Below are positions 1 to 12,963 of a stretch of 14,494 nt of DNA, piece by piece. The notes beneath the pieces were generated by a model, which was given only the letters and a program-made list of their open reading frames with translations, ran no database searches and was not told where the DNA came from. Source of the stretch: Candidatus Altiarchaeota archaeon (lineage in GTDB: Archaea > Altiarchaeota > Altiarchaeia > IMC4 > SCGC-AAA252-I15); contig JAZDIN010000048.1 in assembly GCA_043804895.1 (NCBI GenBank), positions 1-14,494 on the forward strand. Direction: 5' to 3'. The number at the start of each line of letters is the position of its first letter. The stretch's first letter is position 1. The translations under genes and the position numbers were made by a program.

Positions 1-307
1 CCAAGTATGAGTTGACCGAACCGCTAAGCCACAGAGGAAGTGCCGCAATCAGCATACCAACTACCCACCCAAACGCTATGAGGCCCATCGAATGCTTGAA
101 CTGCAGTGTTTCGTTGGTGTGTAAAAATTTCCTAGCTAAAAAATAGATTATGCAGGCCACGTATATGCTGATGATAAAGTCCGTGAGCATATCCCATTCG
201 CCATATAACACTGCAACTGCAGCCGGCACTAGCATCATCAACCCGACACCAAGGAAGATATTTCCCAGGTGATAGCCTATCAGCCTCAGGTCCTTTCTGT
301 CAATCAC
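1..307 (-). CDS. trkH: TrkH-family potassium uptake membrane protein (N-terminal part, runs off window start)
   Basis: Manual translation from GTG at 307 (GTGA overlap with the upstream stop): MIDRKDLRLIGYHLGNIFLGVGLMMLVPAAVAVLYGEWDML...GLIAFGWVVGMLIAALPLWLSGSVNSYL. This resembles the TrkH N-terminal helices leading into the first pore loop. Not in the ORF track because it is truncated. Confidence 0.85.
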   Translation of the reverse strand, partial: MIDRKDLRLIGYHLGNIFLGVGLMMLVPAAVAVLYGEWDMLTDFIISIYVACIIYFLARKFLHTNETLQFKHSMGLIAFGWVVGMLIAALPLWLSGSVNSYL

Positions 308-984
308 GGGACCCACCCCATAATCAAGGCTACCAACACACAGACCACCGCGGCCAGTATTATCAGAAGTATCGTGAATGCAATCTCAGCAACCACACCA
401 GGTATGATATTTCTCCTTATCCTGAAGAATATCCTCCATGTGGGGGAGCTAATAACTGCCTTAGTCACCCTGTATTCCTCCTTAATCTTGTCGTAGAACA
501 GGACAATCACGATTAACCCGAGAAGAAACACCGTCAAGAGCTCAATCACACCAATCGGGTGAGTTACGGCCTTACCCTCTTCCACAACAGTCAGGGAGCT
601 ACAGTGTATGTCCAAGTCCCCTCCGTGGGCTGTGCAGGTCCTGTGGAATACTCCCGTAACCTCGATGGTATCGCCTTTCTTGTTGTAATCCCCCCAGAAT
701 TTTATTTTTCTGGCATCATCTGCAGGACAGAACAAGCCGATGGCGTAAGTTCCGTCATAAACGTTAACCCACGCATCTTCACCCCGGAACATCACAGGCC
801 CCACCACCTCCCCACGGTACAACACCACAGTATTGTCGTGCACGAAACTCTGGTTGATAAGCTCACCACTGGACAAAGCCACACCCACCCCTGAGGATTG
901 ACCAACTCCCTGCGCATCAGCCAGAGTGGGTAAGGCAACCACGCCCAAGAACAGATACGCCAGTAAAGTTGAAACTCTAGCCAT
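304..984 (-). CDS. Membrane-anchored OB-fold-like protein translationally coupled to trkH
   Basis: ORF 304..996; ATG at 984 preferred because GTGAGGGTG (SD-like) precedes it. N-terminal signal/TM segment, beta-rich domain (YRGEVVG...WVNVYDGTYAIGLF...GDTIEVTGVFHRTC..HGGDLDIH) and two C-terminal hydrophobic helices. Confidence 0.7.
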   Translation of the reverse strand: MARVSTLLAYLFLGVVALPTLADAQGVGQSSGVGVALSSGELINQSFVHDNTVVLYRGEVVGPVMFRGEDAWVNVYDGTYAIGLFCPADDARKIKFWGDYNKKGDTIEVTGVFHRTCTAHGGDLDIHCSSLTVVEEGKAVTHPIGVIELLTVFLLGLIVIVLFYDKIKEEYRVTKAVISSPTWRIFFRIRRNIIPGVVAEIAFTILLIILAAVVCVLVALIMGWVP

Positions 985-1158
985 CAACACCCTCACCCTA
1001 TAACCCTTAATGAACCCATTTTCCCAGCAGCCGAAAATCTAACACTTAGACCACCATACCTAGTAGATAGTTAAATCAATTAACGTTTGCTATCGAATAT
1101 AATGCAAACGACCATAAAAAGGGGATTAATGCTTTCCCAAATACTCAAATAATATACA

Positions 1159-1312
1159 AGCCCCCGGGGGGATTTGAACCCCCGACCTACCGATTGCTTT
1201 GAACCTGAATTCTCCCGTTTTTCTTTCTTTGAACCCGAGGGCCTTTCTTTCTTCCTAAGAAAGAAAGGGGCTCTTACAAGTCGGTCGCTCCACCAGTCTG
1301 AGCTACGGAGGC
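1159..1312 (-). tRNA. tRNA-Thr(UGU) with 80-nt intron at 37/38
   Basis: Acceptor GCCTCCG/CGGGGGC, D stem GCTC/GAGC, anticodon stem ACCGA/TCGGT, anticodon TGT at 1278-1276, T arm GGGGG-TTCAAAT-CCCCC, discriminator U. 74 nt after intron removal. Confidence 0.97.
1195..1274 (-). other. tRNA-Thr intron (80 nt) carrying a family C hairpin element at 1221-1274
   Basis: Bulges UA|A and CA|A, central helix CUUG/AAAG (3 pairs plus G.A mismatch), closing helix GAGCC/GGUUC. First 54 nt match the tRNA-Leu intron at 52/54. Confidence 0.93.
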
Positions 1313-1448
1313 GGGCTGTTTTTTGATGTCTTCACCGGGATGTTTAGTCCAGGGTCACTGATTTTTGTCGAATTGGCCCATTCGCCAGCCACGGTAAGGC
1401 TGGTTTGAGGGGGTTTTATGTTTAGGGTTTTTGTTGAATAAAAGGGAG

Positions 1449-3149
1449 TTAGAGGGGTATTTGTTTCGTCACCCAGATGGTGGTCATGCTTGTGTCTGCT
1501 TGTAGCATGCCGAATTTGAGGTCGTAGTATTCGGCGTTCTCGTAGAAGGTTACTTTGCGGCTTTGTGATTTGCCGTACTGGTCTACGACGCGTATGTTAG
1601 CTCCTGTTGAGCAGTTTATCTCGCGTATGAGGCGTTCCAGTTTCAGCGTGTAAGATTGGTAGTCTACCTCCTCAGTCGCTGTCAGGTTCAGTGTGTCGTA
1701 TTGGTAGGGTATTCTAGCGCATGGTTTGCATGGTCCGCCGCAGTCTATCCTTGCTTCACCCTGGTTTTGTATGCAGTCATGGCAGTTTCCTTGTCCCTCC
1801 CGCCCTTCCATGCAGTCGTCCTGTCCTTCGACGCATATTCTCCCCCAGCCGCATACTTCGAGCACTTCTACTGTTTTTTTGATTGTGCAGTTAGCGGGTG
1901 GCGTGCCGGGGTCCGTGCAGATGTTTCTGGTGCAGTTGGTTGTAGGGTTGGCGGCGACATTGCAGTAAGGGGTTATGCACGAGTCCTTTCCGCAGTCTGT
2001 GTTTGTGTTGCAGAGTGCGTCTGTGTTGTTGCATGGTCTGCATTGTCCGCCGCAGTCCACCTTCTCCTCCCCTTCATCGTAGTCTCTTATCTTGTTTCTG
2101 CAGTATTCCGGGTAGCATTCGCCAAGCCAGCAGTACTCCCAGTCTTCGCATCCTTTAACTAGGCGCGGCTCTATGGCGGTGTATTGGCAGTATGATTGCG
2201 GAGCGCCAGGGTGGATGCACATCTGTCTGATGTCCGGGTTTTTGACGTATTTGCCTTCGCAGAACGGCTTATAGGGTATCTCCTTCTCGCACATGCTGTT
2301 GTTGTAGCATTTGGCTGGCAGAGTGACTACCGTCGTTTCAGTGGTTTGTGTTGAGGAGGTTGTTGTGGAGGTCGTTGTCGCCTCAGTGGTTGCTGTTGTT
2401 ACTGGGGGACACTGGCTCGTATCAGCTGCCCAGCTCCCGTCCCAGCACTGGTATTTGGTTTCAGTTTTCGTGAGCGAAGGCAGAACAGTCGCACCGAGGG
2501 CTGCGACAATTATGATGAGTAGGAGCGGTATTGCGTATCTTAGGGGGGAGGCGCCGCCTGGTTTTTTCGGCCGAGGCTCCTCGAACTCGATTCGCCTGTC
2601 CTCGAGGGGTTCGAGTGAGGCTCGCGGAGTCTTGGTTTTAGGTTTCTCTACAGGCTCTTGGGTTTCCTCTGGTTCCGGAGACTTCGACCAGGATATCTGT
2701 GGTTTGGTAGTTTTGTTGGTTTCCTTCTCAGGCTGTGGTTTGGCTTGTACGGGAGTGGTCGGTTGGTCTATCTTCGGCGGTTGCTCGGGTTTAGGTTTGA
2801 CTGGAATCGTTACGGTCACAGCATGCCTGACGCGTTCCTTCTCTAACTCGGCTTTCAACTCGTCAAACTCTTTTTCATCTTCTTCTGGTTGGGGTTTCGT
2901 TATCGCTTTAGGCTGCGGTGGTTCGGGCTTCTTCATACCCTGGTTTGCCCTCTCCCTCTGAAGTTCAGCCTTTAACTCGTTAAATTCCTTCTCATCATTT
3001 TTTGCTGGCTGCTGCTCTGGAGGCTTGGATTGTGCCTGCGGGGTAGTCGGCGCGATGGGCTTCTTTTTGGCGCGCTCCTTCTCCAACTCAGCCTTAAGGC
3101 CTTCCAACTCCTCATCCAACTCCTCAGAGTCCTCATCAGGTTCAGGCAT
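1449..3149 (-). CDS. Single-pass membrane protein: charged/Pro-rich N-terminus, Thr linker, Cys-rich extracellular region
   Basis: 566-aa ORF. Three LKAEL(E/Q)(K/R)ER coiled-coil repeats, TM YAIPLLLIIIVAALGATVL, poly-Thr linker, two DCGGxCxPC motifs and two 8-Cys modules. Confidence 0.85.
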   Translation of the reverse strand: MPEPDEDSEELDEELEGLKAELEKERAKKKPIAPTTPQAQSKPPEQQPAKNDEKEFNELKAELQRERANQGMKKPEPPQPKAITKPQPEEDEKEFDELKAELEKERVRHAVTVTIPVKPKPEQPPKIDQPTTPVQAKPQPEKETNKTTKPQISWSKSPEPEETQEPVEKPKTKTPRASLEPLEDRRIEFEEPRPKKPGGASPLRYAIPLLLIIIVAALGATVLPSLTKTETKYQCWDGSWAADTSQCPPVTTATTEATTTSTTTSSTQTTETTVVTLPAKCYNNSMCEKEIPYKPFCEGKYVKNPDIRQMCIHPGAPQSYCQYTAIEPRLVKGCEDWEYCWLGECYPEYCRNKIRDYDEGEEKVDCGGQCRPCNNTDALCNTNTDCGKDSCITPYCNVAANPTTNCTRNICTDPGTPPANCTIKKTVEVLEVCGWGRICVEGQDDCMEGREGQGNCHDCIQNQGEARIDCGGPCKPCARIPYQYDTLNLTATEEVDYQSYTLKLERLIREINCSTGANIRVVDQYGKSQSRKVTFYENAEYYDLKFGMLQADTSMTTIWVTKQIPL

Positions 3150-3275
3150 ATGGTAGACATTAAACGAGGAGGGTAAAAAACAGGCTTAAAGAGGCTAAAG
3201 CAGTCTCAGAACCGTTTAGTTAGTTCACGCCGAAACGAATTCAAGTCACATTTGATGTGACGATGCATCTAACAG

Positions 3276-3333
3276 TCAGAGGGACTGAAGCGTCAGCGGA
3301 AGTCCCTCCTTCGTGAACCTTAGTAAGGTTCTA
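3276..3333. repeat. Family A double-hairpin repeat, copy 1 (abuts 3' end of tRNA-Pro)
   Basis: gagggact...agtccctc stem then gaacctt-agt-aaggttc stem; homologous to 4052-4161. Confidence 0.85.
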
Positions 3334-3406
3334 TGGGACCGCTGCGATTTGAACGCAGGTCACCAGCACCCCAAGCTGGGAGGATTCCAAGCTACCCCAC
3401 GGTCCC
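3334..3406 (-). tRNA. tRNA-Pro(GGG), no intron
   Basis: Acceptor GGGACCG/CGGTCCC, anticodon arm CCAGC-TTGGGGT-GCTGG, T arm CTGCG-TTCAAAT-CGCAG, discriminator A; 73 nt. Confidence 0.97.
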
Positions 3407-3434
3407 GTCGGTTTGTTGTTTTAGGTTTTTCTTG

Positions 3435-3443
3435 CTTATAATT
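3435..3443 (-). promoter_or_regulatory. Probable TATA box for tRNA-Pro
   Basis: AATTATAAG about 30 nt upstream of the mature 5' end at 3406. Confidence 0.55.
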
Positions 3444-3446
3444 GGA

Positions 3447-4004
3447 CTAGTCTAGGGGTTTTATTTGGTAGCAGGTTCCGTCTGGTTTGAGGATTGGTTT
3501 GTCTGTTTTTGTTGCGGTGGCTGCTGCTGCGGCAAGGGGTACGTTCTCGGTTATTAGGGCCTTTATCATGTTTGGGGGTATTGGTTGGGTTATCCACGCG
3601 TATCCCCTGCCTTCATTGCCTTGGTCCCAGAACTCACGGTATGCTGGGAGCTTTTTCACCGCGTCGTCTATCACATAGATTATCCCTTTTTTGCTGAAGT
3701 AACCTGAGTATTTCACTGCGGAATTTTTCCTTGAGAGGCCTTTCAGTATTGTGATATTCTGGTTTTTGGAGTTGAGGCCTAGACATACCTGCCATTCGCG
3801 GTCTATTTTGTTGTCGTCAGTCTGCTGCGGGACTAGGCCGTATTTGAGGATGTTGTAGGGGTCGGCTTCGCTTCCGTGCATTATCAACCCTGGCAGGTTC
3901 AGGTCAATTGTTGGGGGGATGATTTTCGCAAGACCTATCACTTCTCTTTTGAGACCGTATTTCCTGGCATACTGTGTCACGTCAACCAGGTCAGTCAACG
4001 ACAT
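3447..4004 (-). CDS. Putative ADP-ribosyltransferase-fold protein resembling the NAD-binding lobe of RNA 2'-phosphotransferase Tpt1/KptA
   Basis: 185-aa ORF with ordered motifs LIMHGS (H43), NILKYGLVP, QVCLG, SAVKYS, IIYVID, AWITQPIPPNMI, paralleling LYHGT..I...GL.P..VHLS..A..VI..ID..VWL...VPP.YI of Tpt1/KptA-like domains. Recognised by eye, not by search. Confidence 0.6.
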   Translation of the reverse strand: MSLTDLVDVTQYARKYGLKREVIGLAKIIPPTIDLNLPGLIMHGSEADPYNILKYGLVPQQTDDNKIDREWQVCLGLNSKNQNITILKGLSRKNSAVKYSGYFSKKGIIYVIDDAVKKLPAYREFWDQGNEGRGYAWITQPIPPNMIKALITENVPLAAAAATATKTDKPILKPDGTCYQIKPLD

Positions 4005-4051
4005 AGTCTAGAATGTGTTTCTGCGAAGAAAAATAAGGGGGATTATCACGC

Positions 4052-4161
4052 TCAGAGGGACTGAGCGAAGCGAACACAACCGACCTTTGGTCGGGTGTGT
4101 GTCCGAGACGAACGTCTCGGCCACATGTCCCTCCTTTCGCGAGCCTTTGATAAAGGCTCTG
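4052..4161. repeat. Family A double-hairpin repeat, copy 2 (abuts 3' end of tRNA-Ala), interrupted by a family B insert
   Basis: tcagagggactgagcgaagcgaa[B]gtccctcc...gagccttt-gat-aaaggctct. Compensatory change gaacc/ggttc to gagcc/ggctc relative to copy 1. Confidence 0.85.
4075..4126. mobile_element. Family B 52-bp double-hairpin insert, copy 1 (putative non-autonomous element)
   Basis: cacaaccgac-ctttg-gtcgggtgtgtgtccgagac-gaac-gtctcggccacat. Second copy at 12182-12234; the empty site is at 3301/3302. Confidence 0.75.
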
Positions 4162-4274
4162 TGGACTCGTCGGGATTCGAACCCGAGGCCCCCACCATTC
4201 TGTCGACTGCGGCCGCCAAACGGCTTGCCGCGCCGTTGCCAAGGTGGTGATCTACCGGACTGATCTACGAGCCC
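4162..4274 (-). tRNA. tRNA-Ala(GGC) with 39-nt intron at 37/38
   Basis: Acceptor GGGCTCG/CGAGTCC with G3.U70, D stem GATC/GATC, anticodon stem CCACC/GGTGG, anticodon GGC at 4240-4238, T arm TCGGG-TTCGAAT-CCCGA; 74 nt spliced. Confidence 0.97.
4198..4236 (-). other. tRNA-Ala intron (39 nt, GC-rich hairpin)
   Basis: ACGGCGCGGCAAGCCGTTTGGCGGCCGCAGTCGACAGAA. Central helix UUGG/ACAG with G.A mismatch; closing helix CGGC/GUCG. Confidence 0.92.
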
Positions 4275-4278
4275 TTTG

Positions 4279-4327
4279 TTCTTTCTTTCCGTGCACGCTT
4301 TCTTTCTTTTTAAGAAAGAAAGGGTGC
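4279..4327. repeat. Family C (CTTT/AAAG hairpin) repeat filling the tRNA-Ser/tRNA-Ala spacer
   Basis: ttctttcttt-ccgtgcacg-ctttctttctt-ttt-aagaaagaaagg-gtgc. Same arms as the Thr/Leu intron element; homologous to 12160-12260. Confidence 0.85.
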
Positions 4328-4429
4328 GCAGGGGTTGGGATTTGAACCCAAGGGGCCTTTTGGGCCACAGACTTTCTGTCGTTTGTGGTTAGCAGGCCTG
4401 CGCGTTGGACCGGACTCTGCCACCCCTGC
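4327..4429 (-). tRNA. tRNA-Ser(GCU) with 16-nt intron at 37/38
   Basis: Acceptor GCAGGGG/CCCCTGC, discriminator G, anticodon stem CAGGC/GTCTG, anticodon GCT at 4393-4391, long variable arm GGCC-CAAAA-GGCC, T arm TTGGG-TTCAAAT-CCCAA; 87 nt spliced. Confidence 0.96.
4374..4389 (-). other. tRNA-Ser intron (16 nt)
   Basis: ACCACAAACGACAGAA; central helix CUGC/ACAG (3 pairs plus C.A mismatch). Confidence 0.9.
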
Positions 4430-4510
4430 TTTGTGTATTCCTCTGTATTCGTCTGTATTCGTAAGAGAAGGGGTGCGTGACATGAAGTGTCGCATACACC
4501 CCTGCTTTGT
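4421..4510. repeat. 14-bp direct repeat duplicating the tRNA-Ser 5' boundary around a 62-bp insert
   Basis: cacccctgctttgt at 4421-4434 and 4497-4510. The insert holds three gtattc units at 10-bp spacing and a hairpin. Confidence 0.8.
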
Positions 4511-4535
4511 TGTTGGTTGTTATTGTAGGCAGGGG

Positions 4536-4545
4536 TTAAATAAAA
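4536..4545 (-). promoter_or_regulatory. Probable TATA box for the tRNA-Ser/tRNA-Ala unit
   Basis: TTTTATTTAA about 26 nt upstream of the distal 14-bp repeat copy. Confidence 0.55.
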
Positions 4546-4558
4546 CTGAAGTTTGGGT

Positions 4559-4732
4559 TTAGATTTTTTGTGCTTCGTTTATTAGCATTATTGGTATGCC
4601 GTCTTCGACTTTGTATTTTAGTTTGCATTTCGGGCAGGTTAGGCTTTCCTCCGTCTTAGTGTCCTTGTAGGCGAGGTCGCCTTTGCATTTCGGGCATGCC
4701 ATTATGTCCAGGAGTTTCTTGTCGAGTGTCAT
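4559..4732 (-). CDS. trm112: Trm112-family methyltransferase activator (57 aa, zinc-binding)
   Basis: Manual translation: MTLDKKLLDIMACPKCKGDLAYKDTKTEESLTCPKCKLKYKVEDGIPIMLINEAQKI. LLDxxACPxCKGxL...LxCxxC..Y.V.DGIPxML signature. Below the ORF-track length cutoff. Confidence 0.93.
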   Translation of the reverse strand: MTLDKKLLDIMACPKCKGDLAYKDTKTEESLTCPKCKLKYKVEDGIPIMLINEAQKI

Positions 4733-4760
4733 GTTCTTACTTAGGTTTTTGGGTTATATA

Positions 4761-5729
4761 TCATTTGCTTGTCCACTGTCGGGGGTATGTGTCGGGGTGC
4801 ATTGTTATCCTGTCTGGGGCTGCGATTTCGCCTTTTTTCATACCCATTATCTTGGCTGAGTCTTCGAGTGCTCTGGCGAGGCCTATGAGTTCTCCTTTGA
4901 GTGTGAATAGTGCTATGTAGTCTTTTTTGTGTATGTTGTCTGTGAGTTTGGATACTCCGGGTGCGGCGAGGTGTGCGCCGTGGCATAGTGCGCTGACTGC
5001 GGAGTCTTTCACCCAGATTTTTGGGAGGTGCTGGACTGCGGATTCCATTGGTTGAATGAATTTCCTCAGCTGCGTCTCGTCTTTCTTCTCACGGTAGGTT
5101 TCGATCGCGTCGCGTAGGTCGTGTAAGGTTACGATGGTGTCTTCTTTGAATGGGCCTGCTCGGACTCTCCTGAGTTCCTGCATGTGTGCTCCGACTCCAA
5201 GTACGAGGCCGATGTCGTGACATAGTTTTCGTATGTATGTGCCTGCCTCGCAGTCGACTGTGAATAGGACGTAGTCTCCTTCGCGTTCCAGGTATTTTAT
5301 GGAGTAGATATGGCGTGTCCTCAGCTCCCTTTTGACGGCGCATTTGAGGGGGGGCCTTTGGTATAGTTCCCCGTGGAAGTAGCTGAACGTCTTTTTTATC
5401 TGGCTGTTTGTCGTGTCAGCGTGGAGTTTCATCAGGGTAACGTACTCCTTCCCTGAGACGAGGAGGGCTTGCAGGACTTTGGTGGCTTCTTCCATCGCGA
5501 CTGGTAGCACGCCGGTGACGTTTGGGTCGAGGGTGCCTGAGTGGCCGACGGTTTTGAATCGGAACATCTCCTTCACCCATGCGCTGACTTGGTGTGAGGT
5601 GGGCCCGGCTGGTTTGTCTATATTGACTACTCCTTTCCGTATGTGTTCTTCGATAGGCCTTTGTGATGGGGGGCGGCCGTGTTTTGGGTCTGTGTCCTCT
5701 TCGGATTTGACCAGGATGTTGTCGTCCAT
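4761..5729 (-). CDS. cbf5: RNA-guided pseudouridine synthase Cbf5 (archaeal TruB family)
   Basis: GVVNIDKPAGPTSHQV, catalytic GHSGTLDP, YQRPPLKCAVKRELRTR, CEAGTYIRKLCHDIG, C-terminal PUA domain ending YPRQW. Confidence 0.97.
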   Translation of the reverse strand: MDDNILVKSEEDTDPKHGRPPSQRPIEEHIRKGVVNIDKPAGPTSHQVSAWVKEMFRFKTVGHSGTLDPNVTGVLPVAMEEATKVLQALLVSGKEYVTLMKLHADTTNSQIKKTFSYFHGELYQRPPLKCAVKRELRTRHIYSIKYLEREGDYVLFTVDCEAGTYIRKLCHDIGLVLGVGAHMQELRRVRAGPFKEDTIVTLHDLRDAIETYREKKDETQLRKFIQPMESAVQHLPKIWVKDSAVSALCHGAHLAAPGVSKLTDNIHKKDYIALFTLKGELIGLARALEDSAKIMGMKKGEIAAPDRITMHPDTYPRQWTSK

Positions 5730-5744
5730 CAGAAGTGCTCCTGT

Positions 5745-5960
5745 TTAGGCTAGTTTGAGTTCTGCGAGTTCCTTTGCAGGGTTTTTCCCGCCGACGACCC
5801 AGTGTGTCGGCTCAAGGTGCCTGGCAGACGCTTTGGTTTTTTTGCCGTCAGCTCCCTCGACGTGGAAGCCACCTTCGGTTTTTCCTGTTATGACGCAGAA
5901 CTTCCATGCATCGTTTCCTGCTGTTTTGCGGCATACCCTGCCAACGTCAAGTAAGGCCAT
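5745..5960 (-). CDS. rpl14e: 50S ribosomal protein eL14 (L14e)
   Basis: LDVGRVCRKTAGNDAWKFCVI (KOW) and HLEPT motifs; usual position upstream of cbf5. ATG 5960 preferred to 5975 on TATA spacing. Confidence 0.88.
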   Translation of the reverse strand: MALLDVGRVCRKTAGNDAWKFCVITGKTEGGFHVEGADGKKTKASARHLEPTHWVVGGKNPAKELAELKLA

Positions 5961-5988
5961 TTTGGTGGACACCATTAGGTAGGGAGGG

Positions 5989-5996
5989 TATAAAAA
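5989..5996 (-). promoter_or_regulatory. Probable TATA box for rpl14e-cbf5-trm112
   Basis: TTTTTATA 29 nt upstream of ATG 5960. Confidence 0.6.
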
Positions 5997-6001
5997 GGCT
6001 T

Positions 6002-6832
6002 TTACTTCCAGAACAATATTGCCTGGAGTATTGTCTCTAGAAGTTCTATTATCCTGTCGAGTTTGGTGTTTGTGCGAGTGAATATTGGCTTTTGTGTCGT
6101 GGATGTTGAGGGGGGTTTTTGGGGTTGCGTTGTTGTGGTCGGGGCTTGTGTAGTGGCCGTGGTTTCTGTTGTTGTGGTTGTCGACGTGGTTTCTGTCGTT
6201 GTAGTCGATGTCGTCTCTGATGTCGTGTTTTCGCAGCTGCCAGCCTCACAGACCTGATTTAGGCTGCATGCTTCCAGTGTCACAGTCTCGTACATTTCAG
6301 CGCATTTGGATTGGGCTGTCCCAGGGTTATCGCAGTTCCACCATGTGACTGCCTGGGTTACGTTGCTGCCTTCGCAAGTTGGAGTCCCAATTATTGTAGG
6401 GGGGCAATCTGTGTTGTAGGAGCATGTTACGGTGAGCGGTCTTATAGTGGTCGTGGACGTTGGTTCCGGCTGCTGGCAGCGTCTGCCACCAACGACAAAT
6501 TCCGTGTAGCCTTCGTCCACAAGTTTGTCTATCCTGTACACCTCTACCCTCGCAAGGCGTAAGCCAGGTTTGATGTGGTCCCAGTCTTCAGAGTCCATTG
6601 AGGCTGAGACCTCTGTGAAGCCTGGCTTCAGGTTTTTGGTGTTGAACCTGTAGTTGTCAACGAAGAAGTCAGCGTGCAGGAGGCTGGCTCCCTCGCTCAG
6701 AATCGCCGTCACCTTCGCTGGTTCGCCGCAGTCAACCGGGTTGTTTGAGATATTGAGTAACACTGCAGCGCTTGCGCTTGTGGAGTATAACACCAGTAGT
6801 GTTATGGCAAATAATGATGTTCGTTTTTCCAT
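6002..6832 (-). CDS. Secreted/surface protein with beta-rich N-domain, 8-Cys module and Thr-rich tail
   Basis: Signal peptide MEKRTSLFAITLLVLYSTSASA, one 8-Cys module like those in 1449..3149, poly-Thr stalk, amphipathic C-terminus. Confidence 0.85.
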   Translation of the reverse strand: MEKRTSLFAITLLVLYSTSASAAVLLNISNNPVDCGEPAKVTAILSEGASLLHADFFVDNYRFNTKNLKPGFTEVSASMDSEDWDHIKPGLRLARVEVYRIDKLVDEGYTEFVVGGRRCQQPEPTSTTTIRPLTVTCSYNTDCPPTIIGTPTCEGSNVTQAVTWWNCDNPGTAQSKCAEMYETVTLEACSLNQVCEAGSCENTTSETTSTTTTETTSTTTTTETTATTQAPTTTTQPQKPPSTSTTQKPIFTRTNTKLDRIIELLETILQAILFWK

Positions 6833-6964
6833 TGTTGTTGTAAGCCGGATTGTGTGTCGGTGGAGGAGTAGTCAACTTTATGTCAGACCACACCCCACCC
6901 CCTACTGCATGCGTTATCTTTTTGGGCTTAGTTTATACTAAGTATTAGAATAAATAGCTGCCGG

Positions 6965-8122
6965 TCATCTCATCGTGTTTTTCACGTCTACAACGCGTTC
7001 CTTGGCAGTTTTAAGGCCTTTGACGTTGTTTGCGAGTATTATGGCGTCCATCTGTTTTGGGTCTGTCAGGGGTTTGATTTTAAACAGCTTCTTGACGTCC
7101 TCTTCAGTGAACATTGAGTCCATTCCGAACACTTGGAGTCTCCTTTTTTTGAGCGCTTTTATGAGGGCGTGGGCTCTGGTGTGGCTGGCTTCCTTCACAC
7201 CGCTTCTGTATGAGAGCCCGATTACGGCAACTTTTCCGTTAGGTTTGGCTATTGCCAGCGCCTTGTCAGCGTAATATTCCACCATCTTGTCGTTCAGTCT
7301 CCTGGCCGTTTTTATCAGTGGGACGTTGTATTGGTTGATGAGGAACCACGGGTACACTGGTATGCAGTGTCCTCCTACCATGCCAGGCTCGTGTATGTTG
7401 CAGTACTGGTGAGTCGCAGCCTGCCGCATGCTCCAGAAGTCAACCCCGATTTCTTCGCACACTTTCAGGAGCTCGTTTGCGAGCGCGATGTTCACATCCC
7501 TGTATATGCCTTCCGCCACCTTCACCATTTCAGCTGTCTTCGAATCATCAGCCGTGACGATGGTGCGTGAGAATTTGCTGTAGAGTTCATATGCTGCGTC
7601 GGTGCTTTTCCGGTTTATCCCGCCGACAACCTTTGGGAATTCCTTAAGGCGAGATATGCTGCAGCCGGTCATTATGCGCTCTGGACTGTATGCCAGGAGA
7701 TATTCTCTGCCGGACTTGTCGAGTATTCCTTTGACTAGCTTCTCTGTGGTCTTCGGCGGGACTGTAGTCTCGAGGACTACGAGGTCGCCGTCCTTTAGGA
7801 CTGAGGCGACGTCCTTGAAGGCAGCCTTTATGAGTGTGAAGTCTGGCTTGTTCTTTTTGTCTAGGAGTAGGGGGACTATGACGATGTAGGCTTTCGCATC
7901 TTTGGCGTCTTTTATGTCAGTGGTCGCCTTAAGTGCTCTGCCCCCGTGTCTTCTGACAAGTTCGTCAAGCCCTGCCTCCTCGGGTATGTGATTCTTTCCA
8001 GAGTTTACTGCATGGACCTTTTTCGGGTCTATGTCGACGCCGACAACTTCTAAGCCTGCATCAGCCATGACAGCGGCAAGCGGAAGGCCAGCCCTGCCCA
8101 GCCCGATTACAGCAACCTTCAC
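6965..8122 (-). CDS. Nucleotide-sugar 6-dehydrogenase (WbpA/WecC-like UDP-GlcNAc dehydrogenase)
   Basis: VIGLGRAG Rossmann motif, LETTVPP, YSPER, catalytic GGHCIPVYP, GLSYR; GTGA overlap with the upstream gene. Confidence 0.93.
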   Translation of the reverse strand: MKVAVIGLGRAGLPLAAVMADAGLEVVGVDIDPKKVHAVNSGKNHIPEEAGLDELVRRHGGRALKATTDIKDAKDAKAYIVIVPLLLDKKNKPDFTLIKAAFKDVASVLKDGDLVVLETTVPPKTTEKLVKGILDKSGREYLLAYSPERIMTGCSISRLKEFPKVVGGINRKSTDAAYELYSKFSRTIVTADDSKTAEMVKVAEGIYRDVNIALANELLKVCEEIGVDFWSMRQAATHQYCNIHEPGMVGGHCIPVYPWFLINQYNVPLIKTARRLNDKMVEYYADKALAIAKPNGKVAVIGLSYRSGVKEASHTRAHALIKALKKRRLQVFGMDSMFTEEDVKKLFKIKPLTDPKQMDAIILANNVKGLKTAKERVVDVKNTMR

Positions 8123-9123
8123 AGTAGTATCACCCTGTTGTTTGTCGCGCTCTCCGATATCGCGAGCGCGACTTCAAGGGACTTTAGGCCGTCTAATCCC
8201 GTGACCGTTGTGGGTGTGTTCTTGCGCACTGATTGTACGAATGAGTCTAGCTCAGCCTTGAGGGGTTCCTTCTTCTCTATCCTTATGTGCGTCACATCCC
8301 CCTCTGTCACGCCCATTAGTATGTTCTGGTAGTTGTAGTCTGTGCCGTTGGCTTGCCTGTTCTCGAAGAACGTCAGTTCCTGGGTTATGTACTTCACCTG
8401 GAACATCCCTTTCTCCCCTGTGACCGTAAGCTCCCTTATTTTCTCAGGTGTGAGCCAGTTCACGTCCAACACGCCCACAACGCCGTTTCCGAACTTCAGA
8501 AGCCCTGATAGCATGTCCTCGCATTTGGTGTGTATGCGCTTCTCAGTCTCGGCGTACACCCGCTTAACCTCTGAGCCGGTCACATAGCGCATAACGTCTA
8601 TGTCGTGGACAGCCAGGTCAATCACGACGCCGACATCCCTTATCCTGTGAGGGAACGGCCCTATGCGCGTCGCGTGCATTGAGAATATTCGACCGAGTTG
8701 TTTTTTTTCAATCCTGTTTTTCAGTTCCACGACCGCCGGGTTGAACCGCTCTATATGGCCGACCATTAATTTGACCCCCGCCTCCTTCGCGGATTCCTCG
8801 ATTTTTTTCGCGTTCTCCAGTGTGTCTGCTATTGGTTTTTCAAGAAGAATGGAGGTGCCCTCTTCGATGCATGCGAGCGCGACTTTGGCGTGGGATTGAG
8901 TAGGGACTGCGACAGACACTAGGTCAGGTTTCTCTTTTGAGAGAAGCTGGTCGTAGTCCGAGTATGGAGTGCACTTGAACTTCTCGGCAGTGTTGGATGC
9001 CAGTTTCTTGTCTATGTCGCATACTCCGACCAATTGGACATCCTGCATCTGGGAGTATATTCTCGCGTGGTTGACTCCCATGGCTCCGACTCCGATGACA
9101 GCAGCCTTCAGTGATTCCATCAT
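8119..9123 (-). CDS. Gfo/Idh/MocA oxidoreductase (WbpB/WlbA-like UDP-GlcNAcA 3-dehydrogenase)
   Basis: VIGVGAMG, LLEKPIA, VGHIERFNPA, DVGVVIDLAVHDID; ATGA overlap. Confidence 0.93.
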   Translation of the reverse strand: MMESLKAAVIGVGAMGVNHARIYSQMQDVQLVGVCDIDKKLASNTAEKFKCTPYSDYDQLLSKEKPDLVSVAVPTQSHAKVALACIEEGTSILLEKPIADTLENAKKIEESAKEAGVKLMVGHIERFNPAVVELKNRIEKKQLGRIFSMHATRIGPFPHRIRDVGVVIDLAVHDIDVMRYVTGSEVKRVYAETEKRIHTKCEDMLSGLLKFGNGVVGVLDVNWLTPEKIRELTVTGEKGMFQVKYITQELTFFENRQANGTDYNYQNILMGVTEGDVTHIRIEKKEPLKAELDSFVQSVRKNTPTTVTGLDGLKSLEVALAISESATNNRVILL

Positions 9124-10187
9124 ATGCTATTCAATGTTTCAGCTATATATCCGAGGTTCTCCTCAGTGAGCTTCGGATGTATCGGCAGGGAAATTACCTC
9201 CGCGCATGCCCTCTCAGTCTTCGGGAAATTCCCTTTATAGCCGAGGCTCAGGTAGTGCGGCTGCTGGTGTATCGGCACAGGATAGTAGATGCCACAACCT
9301 ATGCCCTTCTCCTTGAGAGTCTCAGCGACTTTGTCGCGGTTCTTATGCCTCACAGTATACTGGTGGAAGACGTGAACGCACCCCCTTCTAACCTTCGGGA
9401 GCGTGAAGGTCTTGTTCTTGATGTTCTTACTGAGGTATGCTGCATTTTCTATCCGCTTCCTATTGTATTCCGGCAGCTTCTTGAGCTGCTCAACCCCGAT
9501 TGCAGCCGCTATGTCCGTCATCCTCAGGTTGTAGCCGAGCATCTCATGATAGTATCTTCGGAACATCCCATGCTGCCGTATACCCCTAGCCTTCCTGTCA
9601 ACCTCGCCGTCGTCTGTCGTTATAATCCCTCCCTCCGAGGAGGTCATGTTCTTGGTCGGGTAGAAGCTGAAACACCCAGTGCCGAAGGAGCCGACCTTCC
9701 TACCGGAGTATTCCGCCCCGTGGGCCTGGCAGGCGTCCTCGATAACCAATAGATTATGGTCTTTCGCAATCTCCATGATAGCCTTCATCTCAGCCGGGTG
9801 ACCGTACAAGTGGACCGGCATTATTGCCTTAGTTTTTTTTGTTATCCTCTCTGTAATCTGATTCGGGTCCAGGTTATAGGTGTCTTCCTCAATGTCGCAG
9901 AAGAGTGGTTTAGCTCCTGTGAACAGTATCGAGTTCGCTGACGCTATGAACGTGAAGGGAGTAGTGATGACCTCATCCCCCGAACCTATCCCATGGGCCA
10001 GCAATGCGGCATGCAAAGCCGAAGTCCCTGAGGATACTGCTATCGCATGTTTGACTCCGATATAGTTTGCGAAAGCCTGCTCGAACTCCTTCACCTTCGG
10101 GCCTTCGGCTATGATGCCAGAGGATAGTACTGCTAAGACAGCTTTCTTCTCATCATCCCCTATGTCTGGCGATGCTATAGGTATCAT
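9120..10187 (-). CDS. DegT/DnrJ/EryC1/StrS PLP aminotransferase (WbpE-like)
   Basis: [38 protein letters not shown] with the PLP lysine, GYNLRM; ATGA overlap. Confidence 0.95.
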
Positions 10188-10756
10188 TCCTCAAGTATCA
10201 AATATACCTCTTCCGGTATCTGGACTTTCGTCTCACATTCTATACAGAGTATTATGTTGTTTTTTTTCTTCAGTTTCCCGCCGCATTTGCATACGAAAGC
10301 AAACACCCTCGCAGGGTTGCCGTATGCCAGCGCGTGGTCTGGTATGTCCTTTGTCACGACGCTGCCAGCCCCTATCATCGCGTTCTCCCCTATTGTGTTT
10401 CCGCATATTATCGTCGAGTTAGCGCCGATTGACACTCCTTTTTTGACAGTAGTCTTTGAGACGCGCTCTTCGCTCCAGACCTTTGCACGAGGATACATGT
10501 CGTTCGTGAAGCATACCCCAGGGCCGATGAAAACGTCGTCTTCTATAGTCACTCCACGATATACAGATACATTGTTCTGTATCTTGACGTTTGAACCTAT
10601 TTTCACCCCGTAGTCGATGTACACGTTCTTGCCGATCACGCAGTTCTCGCCTATTGTTGCGTCTTCCCTCACCTGGGCTTGGTGCCAAATCTTCGTTCCT
10701 GAGCCTATTTTAGCCATTTCAGAGACGTCGGCTGTGGCGTGTATGTGGGGTTTCAT
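10184..10756 (-). CDS. Hexapeptide-repeat N-acetyltransferase (WbpD/WlbB-like)
   Basis: [39 protein letters not shown]...FTND.YPR, GNPAR..FVCKCG...CIEC tail. Confidence 0.94.
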
Positions 10757-10810
10757 CCTTATGTTAAGGTATTGGGTATTTTAATGTGGTTTATAGTAGG
10801 GAACGTAAGG

Positions 10811-10833
10811 TTTTTATATGATAACATCATATA
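10811..10833 (+). promoter_or_regulatory. TATA box overlapped by a perfect 8-3-8 palindrome (candidate operator)
   Basis: TTTTTATA 10811-10818; tatatgat-aac-atcatata 10815-10833, in the divergent intergenic region. Confidence 0.5.
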
Positions 10834-10837
10834 TTAT

Positions 10838-11092
10838 ATGAAGATGACATCAATACTTGAGGAAACCAACGGAGAACTGAAATTCTCAGGCAACATCCAA
10901 GAGTTCATACTCGACGAAAAAATGGAACTTAAGGCAGTGAAACTGAGAGGCGGAGAGACCGTGGACTACGAACACCTCCATAGGCACTTCTCGCCGAAGC
11001 ACCCGCTCCTGAAGACTCCATCAATCCTGAAACGAACATTAGACCAATTCTTCCTACACGAATTCAAAGAAAAAAGACTAGCGCCGTTCTGA
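10838..11092 (+). CDS. Small hypothetical protein (about 82-84 aa)
   Basis: The only plus-strand ORF that fills a gap. ATG 10838 or 10844 follows a TATA box; soluble, charged composition. The longer 10739 start overlaps the divergent gene. Confidence 0.7.
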   Translation: MKMTSILEETNGELKFSGNIQEFILDEKMELKAVKLRGGETVDYEHLHRHFSPKHPLLKTPSILKRTLDQFFLHEFKEKRLAPF

Positions 11093-11117
11093 AACATAGC
11101 CTAGGTTGTTATGAGAG

Positions 11118-11897
11118 TTAGTCGTGATTAGGTAGTGGGAATAATTTTTTGGACATACGCCAGGAGAAGACGGCAAGCAACCAACCACCAATAATATCCA
11201 CAAAATAGTGATGCCGCAGGTAGAGCGTAGAGAACCATAATGAAAGAACAAACACGCACACGACTAATCTTTCGTGCCTCTTGAGACTCATTGATGAAAG
11301 TAAGACTAATGTTGAAAGGGCCACGTGGAGGCTTGGGAGGCTGTTCATTTGAGTGGAGTTGAGATTGACAACAATATCGTCTAGTTTTTGGATTACTCCC
11401 TCCCCGGAGTCGATAATTGAATTTGAGTAGTTTAGCACATACCTCGGTTCTGGTGCAGGAACGATAAAGAAGATAGGAAGGGCGATTGTGTAGGCTACAA
11501 CAAATGCCGTTAGCAGATGCTCTAGTTCATAAAACCGTTTTCTTGAATGCAAAGTATAAACAGTATAGAGGAACAATGGTATGTATGCGATGATGTACGC
11601 GAAAGACATTAGATAGACTAATGGCAGAGTTAGATACGCCTCTAACGCCTGTGAAGGCTGAAAACCCAGGATTTTATCGTCAAGCCATATGAGAAGATCA
11701 GACTTGTTTTCTTTCGTGACAATATGTATCAAGTCGACTTTGTCTTGGCCGCTTATACCTGCAAGTGACCAATACGAAAAGAATAGGAGGAGTATGACAG
11801 CATACTCCCGGAAGGGTATAACCTCGGAGAGAGGCCTAAACTTTGTCTGGCCCTGCGTCATTCGTATTGCCCTATAAGCCCAGAGTAGTATGAACAA
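11118..11897 (-). CDS. PAP2-superfamily membrane protein (Aur1/Ipt1-like); probably begins at ATG 12076 across a one-base frameshift
   Basis: PAPEPRY, NSLPSLHVA and STLYLRHHYFVDIIGG motifs; several TM helices. The frame stays open and hydrophobic upstream of TTG 11897 to about 11995. Confidence 0.85.
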   Translation of the reverse strand: MFILLWAYRAIRMTQGQTKFRPLSEVIPFREYAVILLLFFSYWSLAGISGQDKVDLIHIVTKENKSDLLIWLDDKILGFQPSQALEAYLTLPLVYLMSFAYIIAYIPLFLYTVYTLHSRKRFYELEHLLTAFVVAYTIALPIFFIVPAPEPRYVLNYSNSIIDSGEGVIQKLDDIVVNLNSTQMNSLPSLHVALSTLVLLSSMSLKRHERLVVCVFVLSLWFSTLYLRHHYFVDIIGGWLLAVFSWRMSKKLFPLPNHD

Positions 11898-12159
11898 GTA
11901 GAACAGAAAGGGCGAAAACAGTTTCAGTAAAAGTTGGACTCCATACCAGTTGAATCCGCGGATGTTGACGCTGAACCTCAGAAGGGTGTAAAAACCAGGT
12001 TGACTAACACCAAGACCTCGTACGCCCTGAACCTAAAGCCTCTTAAGCTTATCCATGGCGTGAGTTTATTCAACATGGTAAGCCTTTGTTGGGGAAAAGT
12101 TGTTCAGACATAATGGACCGGCATCCCCTTATCAACCCTACCCTCCTCTCGTTGTAAAC

Positions 12160-12260
12160 TTTTTCTTTTTCGTGCACGTTTCACAACCGACGCTTCGCGT
12201 CGGGTGTGTGTCTGAGACAAAGTCTCAGCCACATTCTTTTTTCTAAAAAGAAAAAGGTGC
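12160..12260. repeat. Family C repeat 3' of tRNA-Leu, interrupted by a family B insert
   Basis: tttttcttttt-cgtgcacg-ttt[B]tcttttt-tct-aaaaagaaaaaggtgc; aligns with 4279-4327 once B is removed. Confidence 0.8.
12182..12234. mobile_element. Family B 53-bp double-hairpin insert, copy 2
   Basis: cacaaccgac-gcttcgc-gtcgggtgtgtgtctgagac-aaa-gtctcagccacat. Differs from copy 1 only at the two hairpin tips and one compensatory pair. Confidence 0.75.
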
Positions 12261-12262
12261 TT

Positions 12263-12431
12263 TGCGGGGGACGAGGTTTGAACTCGCGCAGTCCTTCGAC
12301 ATAGGGTCTCTCAAAACCTACTATTACGCCTCGGAATGTTCTTTCTTTGAACCCGAGGGCCTTTCTTTCTTACGAAGAAAGAAAGGGGCTCTCCTAAGCC
12401 CTACCCATTTGACCAGCTCTGGCACCCCCGC
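12263..12431 (-). tRNA. tRNA-Leu(UAG) with 85-nt intron at 37/38
   Basis: Acceptor GCGGGGG/CCCCCGC, discriminator A, anticodon stem TAGGG/CCCTA, anticodon TAG at 12396-12394, variable arm GTC-GAAG-GAC, T loop TTCAAAC; 84 nt spliced. Confidence 0.97.
12308..12392 (-). other. tRNA-Leu intron (85 nt) carrying a family C element at 12339-12392
   Basis: Full BHB: bulges GG|A and AG|A, helix CUUA/UGAG, closing helix GAGCC/GGUUU. Confidence 0.93.
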
Positions 12432-12713
12432 AAAAGGGAAATTAAGCCTCAAATGGCCGTCTAAGTATAATGAAGTCATGAAATAAATAGGAAACCACAA
12501 GTCGATTCAGGACAATATCACACTTAACCCGCACTTTTTTCGCATGTACCAAGGCACGCCCATTTGACAAGAAGCCGCAGACAGGCGTACAGGAAAATGG
12601 TCTCGATTTGCCCTTTTCAGGCAAATGTCATATATAAGGCATTCAGTTCATAAAAGCCGTCTATATACCTTATAGGGCTTCTAAAAGGCGTTTAATGGCT
12701 TTTGTGTTTTGGA

Positions 12714-12768
12714 AAGTATTATACACTGTGTGTAATACTCGCAAGTATTATACACTGTGTGTAATACT
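12714..12768. repeat. Two tandem identical 26-bp near-palindromes
   Basis: aagtattatacactgtgtgtaatact at 12714-12739 and 12743-12768, separated by cgc. Each has 12-bp arms with one mismatch. Confidence 0.92.
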
Positions 12769-12963
12769 TTACCCTCTGAAATGCCATACCTATTAAAACG
12801 CCTTAAAATAAAAGCTGTAAGCCCTATTTAGCGTTTCTGGATTATCTTCCCCGAATCTATACCCTGAAACCCCTTGAAATCAATCACAGGCCTAGGTTGC
12901 ACCAGCACAAACAAGCGGCTTACAAGAACAAAAGGTGCAATGATATCGCACATGTAGAGGGGG

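Follow-up and report, generated by a model that had tools for sequence, protein, structure and literature searches.

The window analysed here is a stretch of 14,494 nucleotides (nt), positions 1 to 14,494 of the forward strand of contig JAZDIN010000048.1 in the Candidatus Altiarchaeota archaeon assembly GCA_043804895.1. The gene under study is an open reading frame (ORF) of 185 amino acids (aa) on its minus strand, co-oriented with the genes for tRNA-Ala(GGC) and tRNA-Pro(GGG) between which it lies. To judge from predicted structures, its product is an ADP-ribosyltransferase (ART) fold resembling the NAD lobes of Tpt1/KptA and DarT. An earlier note on this DNA, made from the sequence alone, had described it as an orphan Tpt1/KptA-like gene in an intron-rich tRNA cluster. 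The ORF was found in the place and orientation given there, and the motifs listed, HGS (residues 43-45), ILKYGLVP, VCLG, AVKYS, IIYVID, and WITQPIPPNMI, are all present in the translation, with 42 residues ahead of the His where about 40 had been claimed. The tRNA cluster is likewise rich in introns, which ARAGORN places in four of the five tRNA genes of the window. Genes for a Trm112-like protein and Cbf5 are further neighbours in the window. The coordinates are collected in Table 1.

The description of the ORF as an orphan also holds, because no usable match was obtained in Pfam, NCBIfam, PHROGs, PADLOC, or the PDB sequences. Pfam hmmscan returned no family at E up to 10. The best library matches, a PHROG tail fibre (E 0.1) and PADLOC REase_II (E 0.03), were judged meaningless, and the best PDB matches by sequence, NRDE2 (E 0.61) and, with a profile, Phi92_gp136 (E 1.4), were dismissed as chance. 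Relatives of the ORF are readily found among unannotated proteins. A word-indexed search of 5.8 billion proteins yielded 14 homologues (51-62% identity, 183-220 aa), and a 21-sequence profile gave 33 homologue clusters (144-220 aa) with no Pfam domain in any. An exhaustive HMMER search of 1.84 billion representatives returned four full-length relatives, one 52-aa fragment (P0021, the C-terminal part of a family member), and three long weak matches. Of the last, P0020 (957 aa), the only one inspected, proved to be of leucine-rich-repeat type and was dismissed as spurious; the others are P0019 (1770 aa) and P0022 (6746 aa). The family length is typically about 183 aa. None of the 14 DNA copies contains a stop. 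The closest pair has a nonsynonymous rate (dN) of 0.087 and a synonymous rate (dS) of 0.514 (dN/dS 0.17), and over all pairs the median proportion of nonsynonymous differences (pN) is 0.36 versus 0.72 for synonymous ones (pS). In view of the homologues, the intact copies, and the low dN/dS of the closest pair, the ORF is a real gene under purifying selection.

Two members of the family were modelled with AlphaFold2. Model 1, of the ORF protein with an alignment of 15 sequences, has a predicted local distance difference test (pLDDT) score of 88.2 and a predicted template modelling (pTM) score of 0.87. Model 2, of a member about 45% identical to it with 30 sequences, has values of 96.9 and 0.91, respectively. 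The structural elements follow the order b-a-b-a-b-a-b-b-b. The core, from about residue 37 to 155, is predicted to be a six-strand, three-helix NAD lobe, flanked by an N-terminal beta-alpha-beta unit (1-36) and by a C-terminal helix plus strand. H43 falls on strand beta-1 (41-45) of this predicted NAD-binding fold, as is characteristic of the superfamily.

The models were compared by VIA-align with 48,161 representative chains, and 50 matches were listed. For model 1 the first match is TkoKptA (Z 8.8, 86 residues, root mean square deviation (rmsd) 3.1, model 37-151 versus chain 92-180), and four DarT entries (Z 7.4-8.1, 123-129 residues aligned) and the yeast and mouse Tpt1 (about Z 7) are also found. 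At least 43 of the 50 matches listed are, by title, ART, PARP, Tpt1/KptA, or DarT. A second structural comparison placed archaeal Tpt1 at the head, with the proteins of P. horikoshii (Z 9.2), A. pernix (9.0), and T. kodakarensis (8.9). For model 2, DarT (Z 7.1-7.5) is slightly ahead of yeast Tpt1 (7.0) and TkoKptA (6.8). In the Foldseek search of the PDB the top rows are Tpt1/KptA, DarT, and pertussis S1, from E 1.7e-3 and with probabilities up to 1.00. The ESM Atlas model of the ORF protein has DarT clusters as structural neighbours (TM-score 0.54-0.56); its feature neighbours are mostly unnamed viral clusters with scores (0.90-0.93) within the chance range of the tool. Foldseek against BFVD gave one match below 1e-3, to an uncharacterised phage protein, and a phage DarT is among the named rows.

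Because the same superfamily dominates the match lists for two models and three methods, the ART fold is well supported as a prediction, and the nearest clade may be either the Tpt1 lobe or DarT. Both structural claims of the earlier note were thereby upheld. In Foldseek and VIA, it is with the NAD lobes of Tpt1/KptA and DarT that the protein matches best, and it has a single lobe, with only 36-42 residues ahead of the HGS strand, which form the beta-alpha-beta unit. From these predictions, the ORF is, as far as the searches reach, the founding member of a small family of single-domain ART-fold proteins.

The likeness to archaeal Tpt1/KptA was assessed with the structures 8TFI/8TFZ (P. horikoshii), 8TG4/1WFX (A. 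pernix), and 9LD3-9LDI (T. kodakarensis). The six-strand, three-helix NAD lobe is common to these and to the models (Z 8.7-9.2, 85-89 residues, rmsd 2.7-3.1, 15-21% identity). The same lobe composition is given for CthTpt1 in the text drawn from PMC6333775, where aa 1-85 make up the RNA lobe. The H-G-[ST] motif of Tpt1 is in register with H43-G44-S45, the whole-protein size is similar (~180 aa), and the third catalytic position would, by element order, be non-Glu in both. There are also differences. The winged-helix RNA lobe of Tpt1 is missing from the ORF protein, the alignments starting at model residues 37-38 and Tpt1 chain residues 89-96, and with it the Arg-His-Arg-Arg tetrad, three residues of which belong to the absent lobe. 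The fourth tetrad residue would be expected, by element order, at position 70 (four before C74), which is acidic (Asp or Glu) in 18 of 21 sequences and variable over 30. The beta-2 His of Tpt1 (Tko H122, which contacts the ribose 2''-OH and belongs to the 'H-H-h' signature) is, by the same element order, an invariant Cys in the ORF family. Relative to Tpt1, the ORF protein also has two insertions (about 56-71 and 78-94) and N- and C-terminal elements of its own.

Residue conservation was counted over 30 sequences. H43, G44, Q72, C74, K93, N94, Y99, Y110, Y122, G134, T152, and N154 are invariant; S45, E124, and A136 are each conserved in 29 and K98 in 27. The invariant positions are concentrated on the strands and helices of the predicted NAD lobe. 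By the VIA ranges, with the first six residues taken as ungapped, H43 pairs with Tko H98 (model 37 versus chain 92) and with Thermus DarT H13 (model 36 versus chain 6). The adenosine ribose is held in TkoTpt1 by H98 and T100, and the nicotinamide by the amide of G99; the helix residues T133 and H137 contact the nicotinamide and phosphate (excerpts of PMC12678800). In DarT, the same NAD-binding roles are ascribed to H13, T15, and I14 (excerpts of PMC9967889). Strand 72-77 reads x-Q-V/I-C-L/M-G and has His in none of the 30 sequences. To judge from the order of elements, C74 probably takes the position that H122 of Tko and H129 of E. coli hold as second His in Tpt1, and the K93-Y99 helix may match the Tpt1 helix with T133 and H137 (Tko numbering).

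The third catalytic position of ARTs, on beta-5, is E, D, or Q in protein transferases and hydrophobic in the H-H-h clade. In the ORF protein the fifth strand begins R133-G134-Y135-A136, none of which is Glu. The claim that Glu is lacking at the usual position is consistent with this order of elements, with the qualification that the near-invariant E124, which might reach the NAD site, sits on the preceding, fourth strand.

Table 1. Coordinates of the gene for the predicted ART-fold protein, its conserved codons, and neighbouring features in the window
Feature	Position	Strand	Basis or remark
Coding sequence of the 185-aa predicted ART-fold protein, with stop codon	3447..4004	minus	Stop codon 3447-3449; ORF list and translation
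Codons H43-G44-S45, putative NAD-binding motif on strand beta-1	3870..3878	minus	Conservation and structural register
Codons Q72-V-C74-L-G76 on strand beta-2 (model residues 72-77)	3777..3791	minus	Conservation; putative equivalence to Tpt1 second His from element order
Codons K93-N94-S-A96-V-K98-Y99, conserved helix after beta-2 (model helix 95-99)	3708..3728	minus	Conservation
Codons Y122-R-E124-F-W126, fourth core strand (model 123-126)	3627..3641	minus	Conservation
Codons R133-G134-Y-A136-W137, start of fifth core strand, canonical third catalytic position of ARTs	3594..3608	minus	Conservation; weak hhalign
T-rich box CTTATTTTTCT, candidate archaeal TATA-like promoter	4027..4037	minus	23-33 nt before ATG
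tRNA-Ala(GGC) with intron, upstream neighbour	4161..4274	minus	Rfam 52.9 bits; ARAGORN
tRNA-Pro(GGG), downstream neighbour	3334..3406	minus	ARAGORN; 40 nt beyond the ORF stop codon
tRNA-Ser with intron	4326-4429		In the window
tRNA-Thr with intron	1159-1312		In the window
tRNA-Leu with intron	12262-12432		In the window

At the level of sequence no significant relation to Tpt1/KptA was found. A six-frame search of the whole window genome (88.7% complete), ORF included, gave no match to PF01885 (PTS_2-RNA), the profile of the Tpt1/KptA RNA 2'-phosphotransferases. In hhalign, neither E. coli KptA by itself nor a KptA profile of 30 sequences (probability 0.4%) gave a significant match; the profiles are shallow (Neff ~2.5), and the KptA profile is of low diversity, all its listed matches being at least 59% identical to the query. 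With the NAD lobe only, the HGT segment of KptA is matched by PGLIMHGS..ILKYGLVP at E 0.017 and a probability of 2.6%, in a register that fits E. coli H105, and at low stringency F125-W126 and A136-W137 align weakly with F164-W165 and V171-W172, respectively, of E. coli KptA. From sequence and model together, the ORF protein is not a member of the Tpt1/KptA family. Of the description as Tpt1/KptA-like, the ART fold and the register of the HGS motif stood; a PF01885 match, the RNA lobe, the tetrad, the second His, and a hhalign probability above 2.6% were not found.

Tpt1-like lobes outside the full two-lobe architecture occur elsewhere, as the models of short phage proteins in BFVD show, among them Caudovirales proteins and a putative RNA 2'-phosphotransferase of Pseudomonas phage PaBG (121 aa); the Foldseek matches to this group have E values from 8.9e-5 to 3e-3. 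These proteins differ from the ORF family in being viral, and they are uncharacterised and have no detectable sequence relation to it.

Canonical KptA above the cut-off was found in none of the 41 Altiarchaeales genomes searched, that is, the genome of the window and 40 relatives. The sole Tpt1-like signal in them is a divergent KptA-like ORF of 224 aa in genome G008 (locus L035, 1426-2100, minus strand), which scores 23.5 bits on PF01885 against a cut-off of 26 bits. It corresponds to the NAD-lobe part only, and its HGT reads FGT. As a candidate member of the present family it was rejected, being a different ORF. The window genome has two RtcB loci, and ligation by RtcB leaves no 2'-phosphate. 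The second locus (G000, contig C57, 1385-2977; L033/L034) matches the family model in two parts (positions 1-52 and 44-397) that are separated by about 300 nt in a single 580-aa frame, a pattern that suggests an insertion such as an intein.

The ssDNA ADP-ribosyltransferase toxin DarT (7OMV, 7YK3, 7OMU, 8BAQ) gives the longest overlap with both models (121-129 residues, model 33-177, Z 7.1-8.2). It resembles the ORF protein in being a single domain of about 200 aa and in its H-x-[ST] motif, the DarT H13-I14-T15 being in register with that of the ORF. It differs in that the ORF protein is archaeal and syntenic with housekeeping genes. The DarT family PF14487 gave no match to the ORF in Pfam hmmscan at E up to 10; a search of the window genome for PF14487 gave no match but carries no weight, because its control matched in no genome. 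The catalytic residues of Thermus DarT are R51 and E160 (excerpts of PMC9967889), for which R92/K93 and E124 are candidate equivalents. No DarG, macrodomain, or other conserved partner adjoins the gene in the window or in 13 related loci. The Macro domain has no match in the window genome, and it occurs in two of six ART-positive versus four of 15 ART-negative genomes of the same family, which indicates no co-occurrence. Because there is no conserved partner gene, the ORF is not part of a DarT toxin pair. In one ART-lacking genome (L029 in G005, 5887-6408) a MacroD-type macrodomain gene lies just past the tRNA-Pro-type gene, possibly by coincidence.

Small single-domain ART-like folds that also lack a substrate lobe are known in the rifampin ADP-ribosyltransferase Arr (9IAF; Z 5.0-6.1) and CC0527 (2O0Q/2JQN; Z 4.8-6.4). 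Both score below Tpt1 and DarT, and they differ from the ORF in that there is no sequence match between them and no resistance or biosynthetic context at the loci.

Profile matches to the family were found in six of the 41 genomes. Within the family of the window genome, the gene is present in five of the 20 other genomes, and it was found in none of 20 genomes from six other families of Altiarchaeales. Many of the genomes are incomplete, and absence here means that the gene was not found in those searched. Within this scope, the gene is accessory and lineage-restricted, being seen only in one family of Altiarchaeales. The isoelectric point (pI) of the proteins ranges from 4.8 to 9.7 and is below 7 in nine of 21 members. 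T-rich boxes at about the same distance from the start as in the window occur in most of the 14 loci compared, and they suggest an archaeal promoter of its own for the gene, with a leaderless or short-leader mRNA. Among the titles and opening lines of abstracts in the literature searched, there is no Altiarchaeota ADP-ribosylating enzyme of this kind, and those listed on Altiarchaeota tRNA introns contain nothing on this locus.

The gene neighbourhood was compared in the 13 related loci, five from genomes and eight from metagenome contigs, in which miscalled intron-bearing tRNAs were re-examined. In ten of the 13, the ORF has a tRNA-Pro-type gene no more than 240 nt away, on either strand. This tRNA gene is downstream on the same strand in L014-L018, downstream on the opposite strand in L013 and L020-L022, and upstream in L023; in L013 and L021 it abuts the ORF stop codon directly. 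The occurrence of the adjacent gene on either strand implies that a single tRNA gene was locally inverted while the adjacency was kept. The three exceptions are L011, with no tRNA in 13 kb, L012, with tRNA-Thr 770 nt downstream, and L019, where the contig ends 154 nt past the ORF. tRNA-Ala(GGC) is found at most 900 nt upstream in eight of the 13 loci.

Most of the related loci have one common block, Cbf5-Trm112-tRNA-Ser-tRNA-Ala-[gene]-tRNA-Pro-Cys-rich protein-tRNA-Thr. Because of this, the tRNA association is largely inherited synteny, with perhaps two or three independent contexts. The tRNA linkage proposed in the earlier note thus stands insofar as homologues adjoin tRNA genes; it is largely a matter of one inherited block, and it is lost in G010, where the ART-fold gene is packed between HisA-like and TatD-like genes. 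The three loci with disrupted synteny have unrelated housekeeping genes as neighbours, among them also a PurM-like one in G010 and a Pop5-like one in L023, and they have no small partner ORF in common. The Cys-rich protein, encoded in the window at 1449-3149 on the minus strand, has 566 aa with a Thr/Pro linker and no Pfam match; most related loci have a copy beside the tRNA block, with 41-55% identity.

The ART-lacking genomes retain Cbf5-Trm112-tRNA-Ser and then diverge. G005 has 4.3 kb of other genes and no ART between tRNA-Ala and the tRNA-Pro-type gene, and in L020 a 1236-aa ORF lies between tRNA-Ala and the ART-fold gene. Because G005, G003, and L020 hold other genes there, the interval from tRNA-Ala(GGC) to tRNA-Pro(GGG) is a variable slot. 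In G003, of the same genus and without the gene (L028, 1772-7462), tRNA-Ser and tRNA-Ala are inverted relative to Trm112 and are followed by a SepRS-like gene and then a 757-aa VirB4/TraC-like ATPase, named from reading the translations and not from a family scan; the sequence hints at a mobile element. No direct repeats of tRNA ends (att-like) were found around the gene.

The tRNA genes of these loci have some structural features of their own. In L023, tRNA-Met (1311-1517), tRNA-Pro(GGG) (3691-3880), and tRNA-Thr (5938-6122) have unusually long introns (111-130 nt) with many short A/T repeats of hairpin-like form, and an integrase-like ORF begins at 6181. In the window, tRNA-Ala and tRNA-Pro are each directly followed on the minus strand by a two-part structured trailer (4040-4161 and 3265-3333), in which a short hairpin (GAGCCUUUAUCAAAGGCUC / GAACCUUACUAAGGUUC) precedes a long stem (GGAGGGAC...GUCCCUCUGA), with folding z-scores of -5.5 and -3.0. 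Both trailers end in an identical 13 nt, TCAGAGGGACTGA, at 3276 and 4052; by itself, the 12-mer occurs no more than expected by chance. Rfam gave no match to either trailer. The possible link of the ART-fold gene to hairpin elements, which had also been raised, comes down to adjacency.

Taken together, the balance of the evidence leans somewhat toward a new stand-alone family of NAD+-using ART-fold enzymes, whose target would be a nucleic-acid phosphate or base or a small molecule. In the proposed mechanism, H43 and S45 would hold the adenosine ribose of NAD+, the backbone of G44 would contact the nicotinamide amide, and the rest of the NAD+ site would be made up of the invariant cluster Q72/C74, K93/N94/K98/Y99, Y110, and Y122/E124. 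ADP-ribose would then be moved from NAD+ onto an acceptor. A nucleic-acid phosphate end or base would rank first as acceptor and a small molecule second, given that RNA or DNA is the substrate of all the close structural neighbours, although this choice is tempered by the variable pI and the missing substrate lobe. An action identical to that of Tpt1 is out of the question, since the protein has no RNA lobe, the part by which Tpt1 recognises the 2'-phosphate. The gene would be expressed independently from its own T-rich promoter, and its slot between tRNA-Ala(GGC) and tRNA-Pro(GGG) would be kept mainly by descent.

A number of results weigh against this interpretation. Foldseek found nothing in the PDB at E ≤ 0.001, the Z values of 7-9 are middling by the tool's own scale, and model 2 never reaches Z 8 with any chain. 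Homology to any ART family finds no backing at the level of sequence, the hhalign probabilities being 0.4-2.6% and the Pfam and PDB profile searches negative. The protein has neither a Glu at the canonical third position nor the Tpt1 tetrad nor the second His, and the roles of residues beyond H43 are putative, from element order. Finally, the family is not consistently basic, which is weak evidence against general nucleic-acid binding.

These points bear differently on the other explanations. The small size of the domain, the lack of a nucleic-acid-binding lobe, the inconsistent pI, and the presence of Arr and CC0527 among the structural matches would suit a small-molecule ADP-ribosyltransferase or a soluble ADP-ribose generator (Arr-like or of the H-H-h clade), to which the tRNA neighbours would be irrelevant. 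Such an enzyme is unlikely, though it carries some weight, as Arr and CC0527 score clearly under Tpt1 and DarT, and neither a Pfam match to such families nor a biosynthetic or resistance context was found at any locus. Less probable still is a DarT-like toxin or conflict cargo, that is, a mobile or defence ART in a tRNA-flanked hot spot that ADP-ribosylates cellular or invading DNA or RNA. It would account for DarT giving the longest alignments and the ESM Atlas neighbours, for the patchy distribution, and for the variable tRNA interval, including the 4.3 kb of G005, the 1236-aa ORF of L020, and the VirB4-like ATPase near it in G003. It is, however, at odds with the lack of a conserved antitoxin or immunity neighbour in any of the 14 loci, with the Macro results for the window genome and the family, and with the absence of tRNA-end repeats and of an adjoining integrase in the window. 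Moreover, the same slot has been kept while the proteins diverged to ~50% identity, the neighbours in G010 (HisA-like and TatD-like) are of housekeeping type, and PADLOC gave nothing better than E 0.03. The fallback of the earlier note, unrelated cargo captured at a tRNA locus, remains a live rival.

The tRNA neighbourhood may also be taken at face value. The protein would then be a dedicated RNA-end enzyme of the tRNA pathway, built from a stand-alone Tpt1-type lobe in a lineage without KptA above the cut-off. It might carry out NAD+-dependent ADP-ribosylation, capping, or removal of terminal phosphates on pre-tRNAs, tRNA halves, or excised introns. Its substrate would be recognised by its own N- and C-terminal elements or by a partner rather than by a winged-helix lobe, and the lasting adjacency to tRNA-Pro(GGG) would reflect co-expression with the substrates. 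This more specific proposal is tentative and seems distinctly unlikely. At the other extreme, a catalytically dead NAD+ or ADP-ribose binder, or a purely structural protein of ART descent, is conceivable because the canonical Glu, the tetrad, and the second His are missing, and pseudo-PARP domains (TASOR) are among the distant matches. This appears more doubtful again, since HGS and some 20 other positions are invariant over 21-30 sequences, including polar residues on the NAD+-binding elements of Tpt1, and the gene is under purifying selection, although a binder would fit the latter equally well. Of all the explanations, a true functional Tpt1/KptA orthologue that strips 2'-phosphates from spliced tRNAs is the hardest to credit. 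The best Z values do belong to archaeal Tpt1 NAD lobes, canonical KptA above the cut-off was not found in the 41 genomes, and the gene lies among intron-bearing tRNA genes. Nevertheless, the protein lacks the RNA lobe and, of the tetrad, three residues, the fourth being expected at a position that is acidic or variable, and RtcB, with its two loci in the genome, produces no 2'-phosphate to be removed. With the gene in only six of the 41 genomes, it is not the general solution of the lineage, and for the same counts (six of 41 for the ART gene against none of 41 for KptA) a general replacement of KptA was rejected.

The predicted fold confirms the main idea of the earlier note; for the function and for what the tRNA neighbours mean, there are candidate readings. 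The favoured interpretation, a stand-alone NAD+-using family, would add to the ART superfamily an unannotated, free-standing member that lacks the tetrad and in which H...C stands for H...H. It would indicate that the NAD lobe can stand alone under selection with a rebuilt active site, H...C...Y...E instead of H-H-h plus tetrad, in a lineage that, as searched, appears to be without canonical KptA. The text drawn from PMC6333775 describes as an open question the role of Tpt1/KptA in organisms whose splice junctions carry no 2'-phosphate, and the present protein, compact (185 aa) and confidently modelled, may serve for probing how a bare Tpt1/DarT-type lobe deals with NAD+. Should the target not be RNA, the family would be another lineage-specific ART of modest interest. 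If, on the other hand, the target is indeed tRNA or another RNA end, it would represent a new archaeal enzyme of nucleic-acid ADP-ribosylation.

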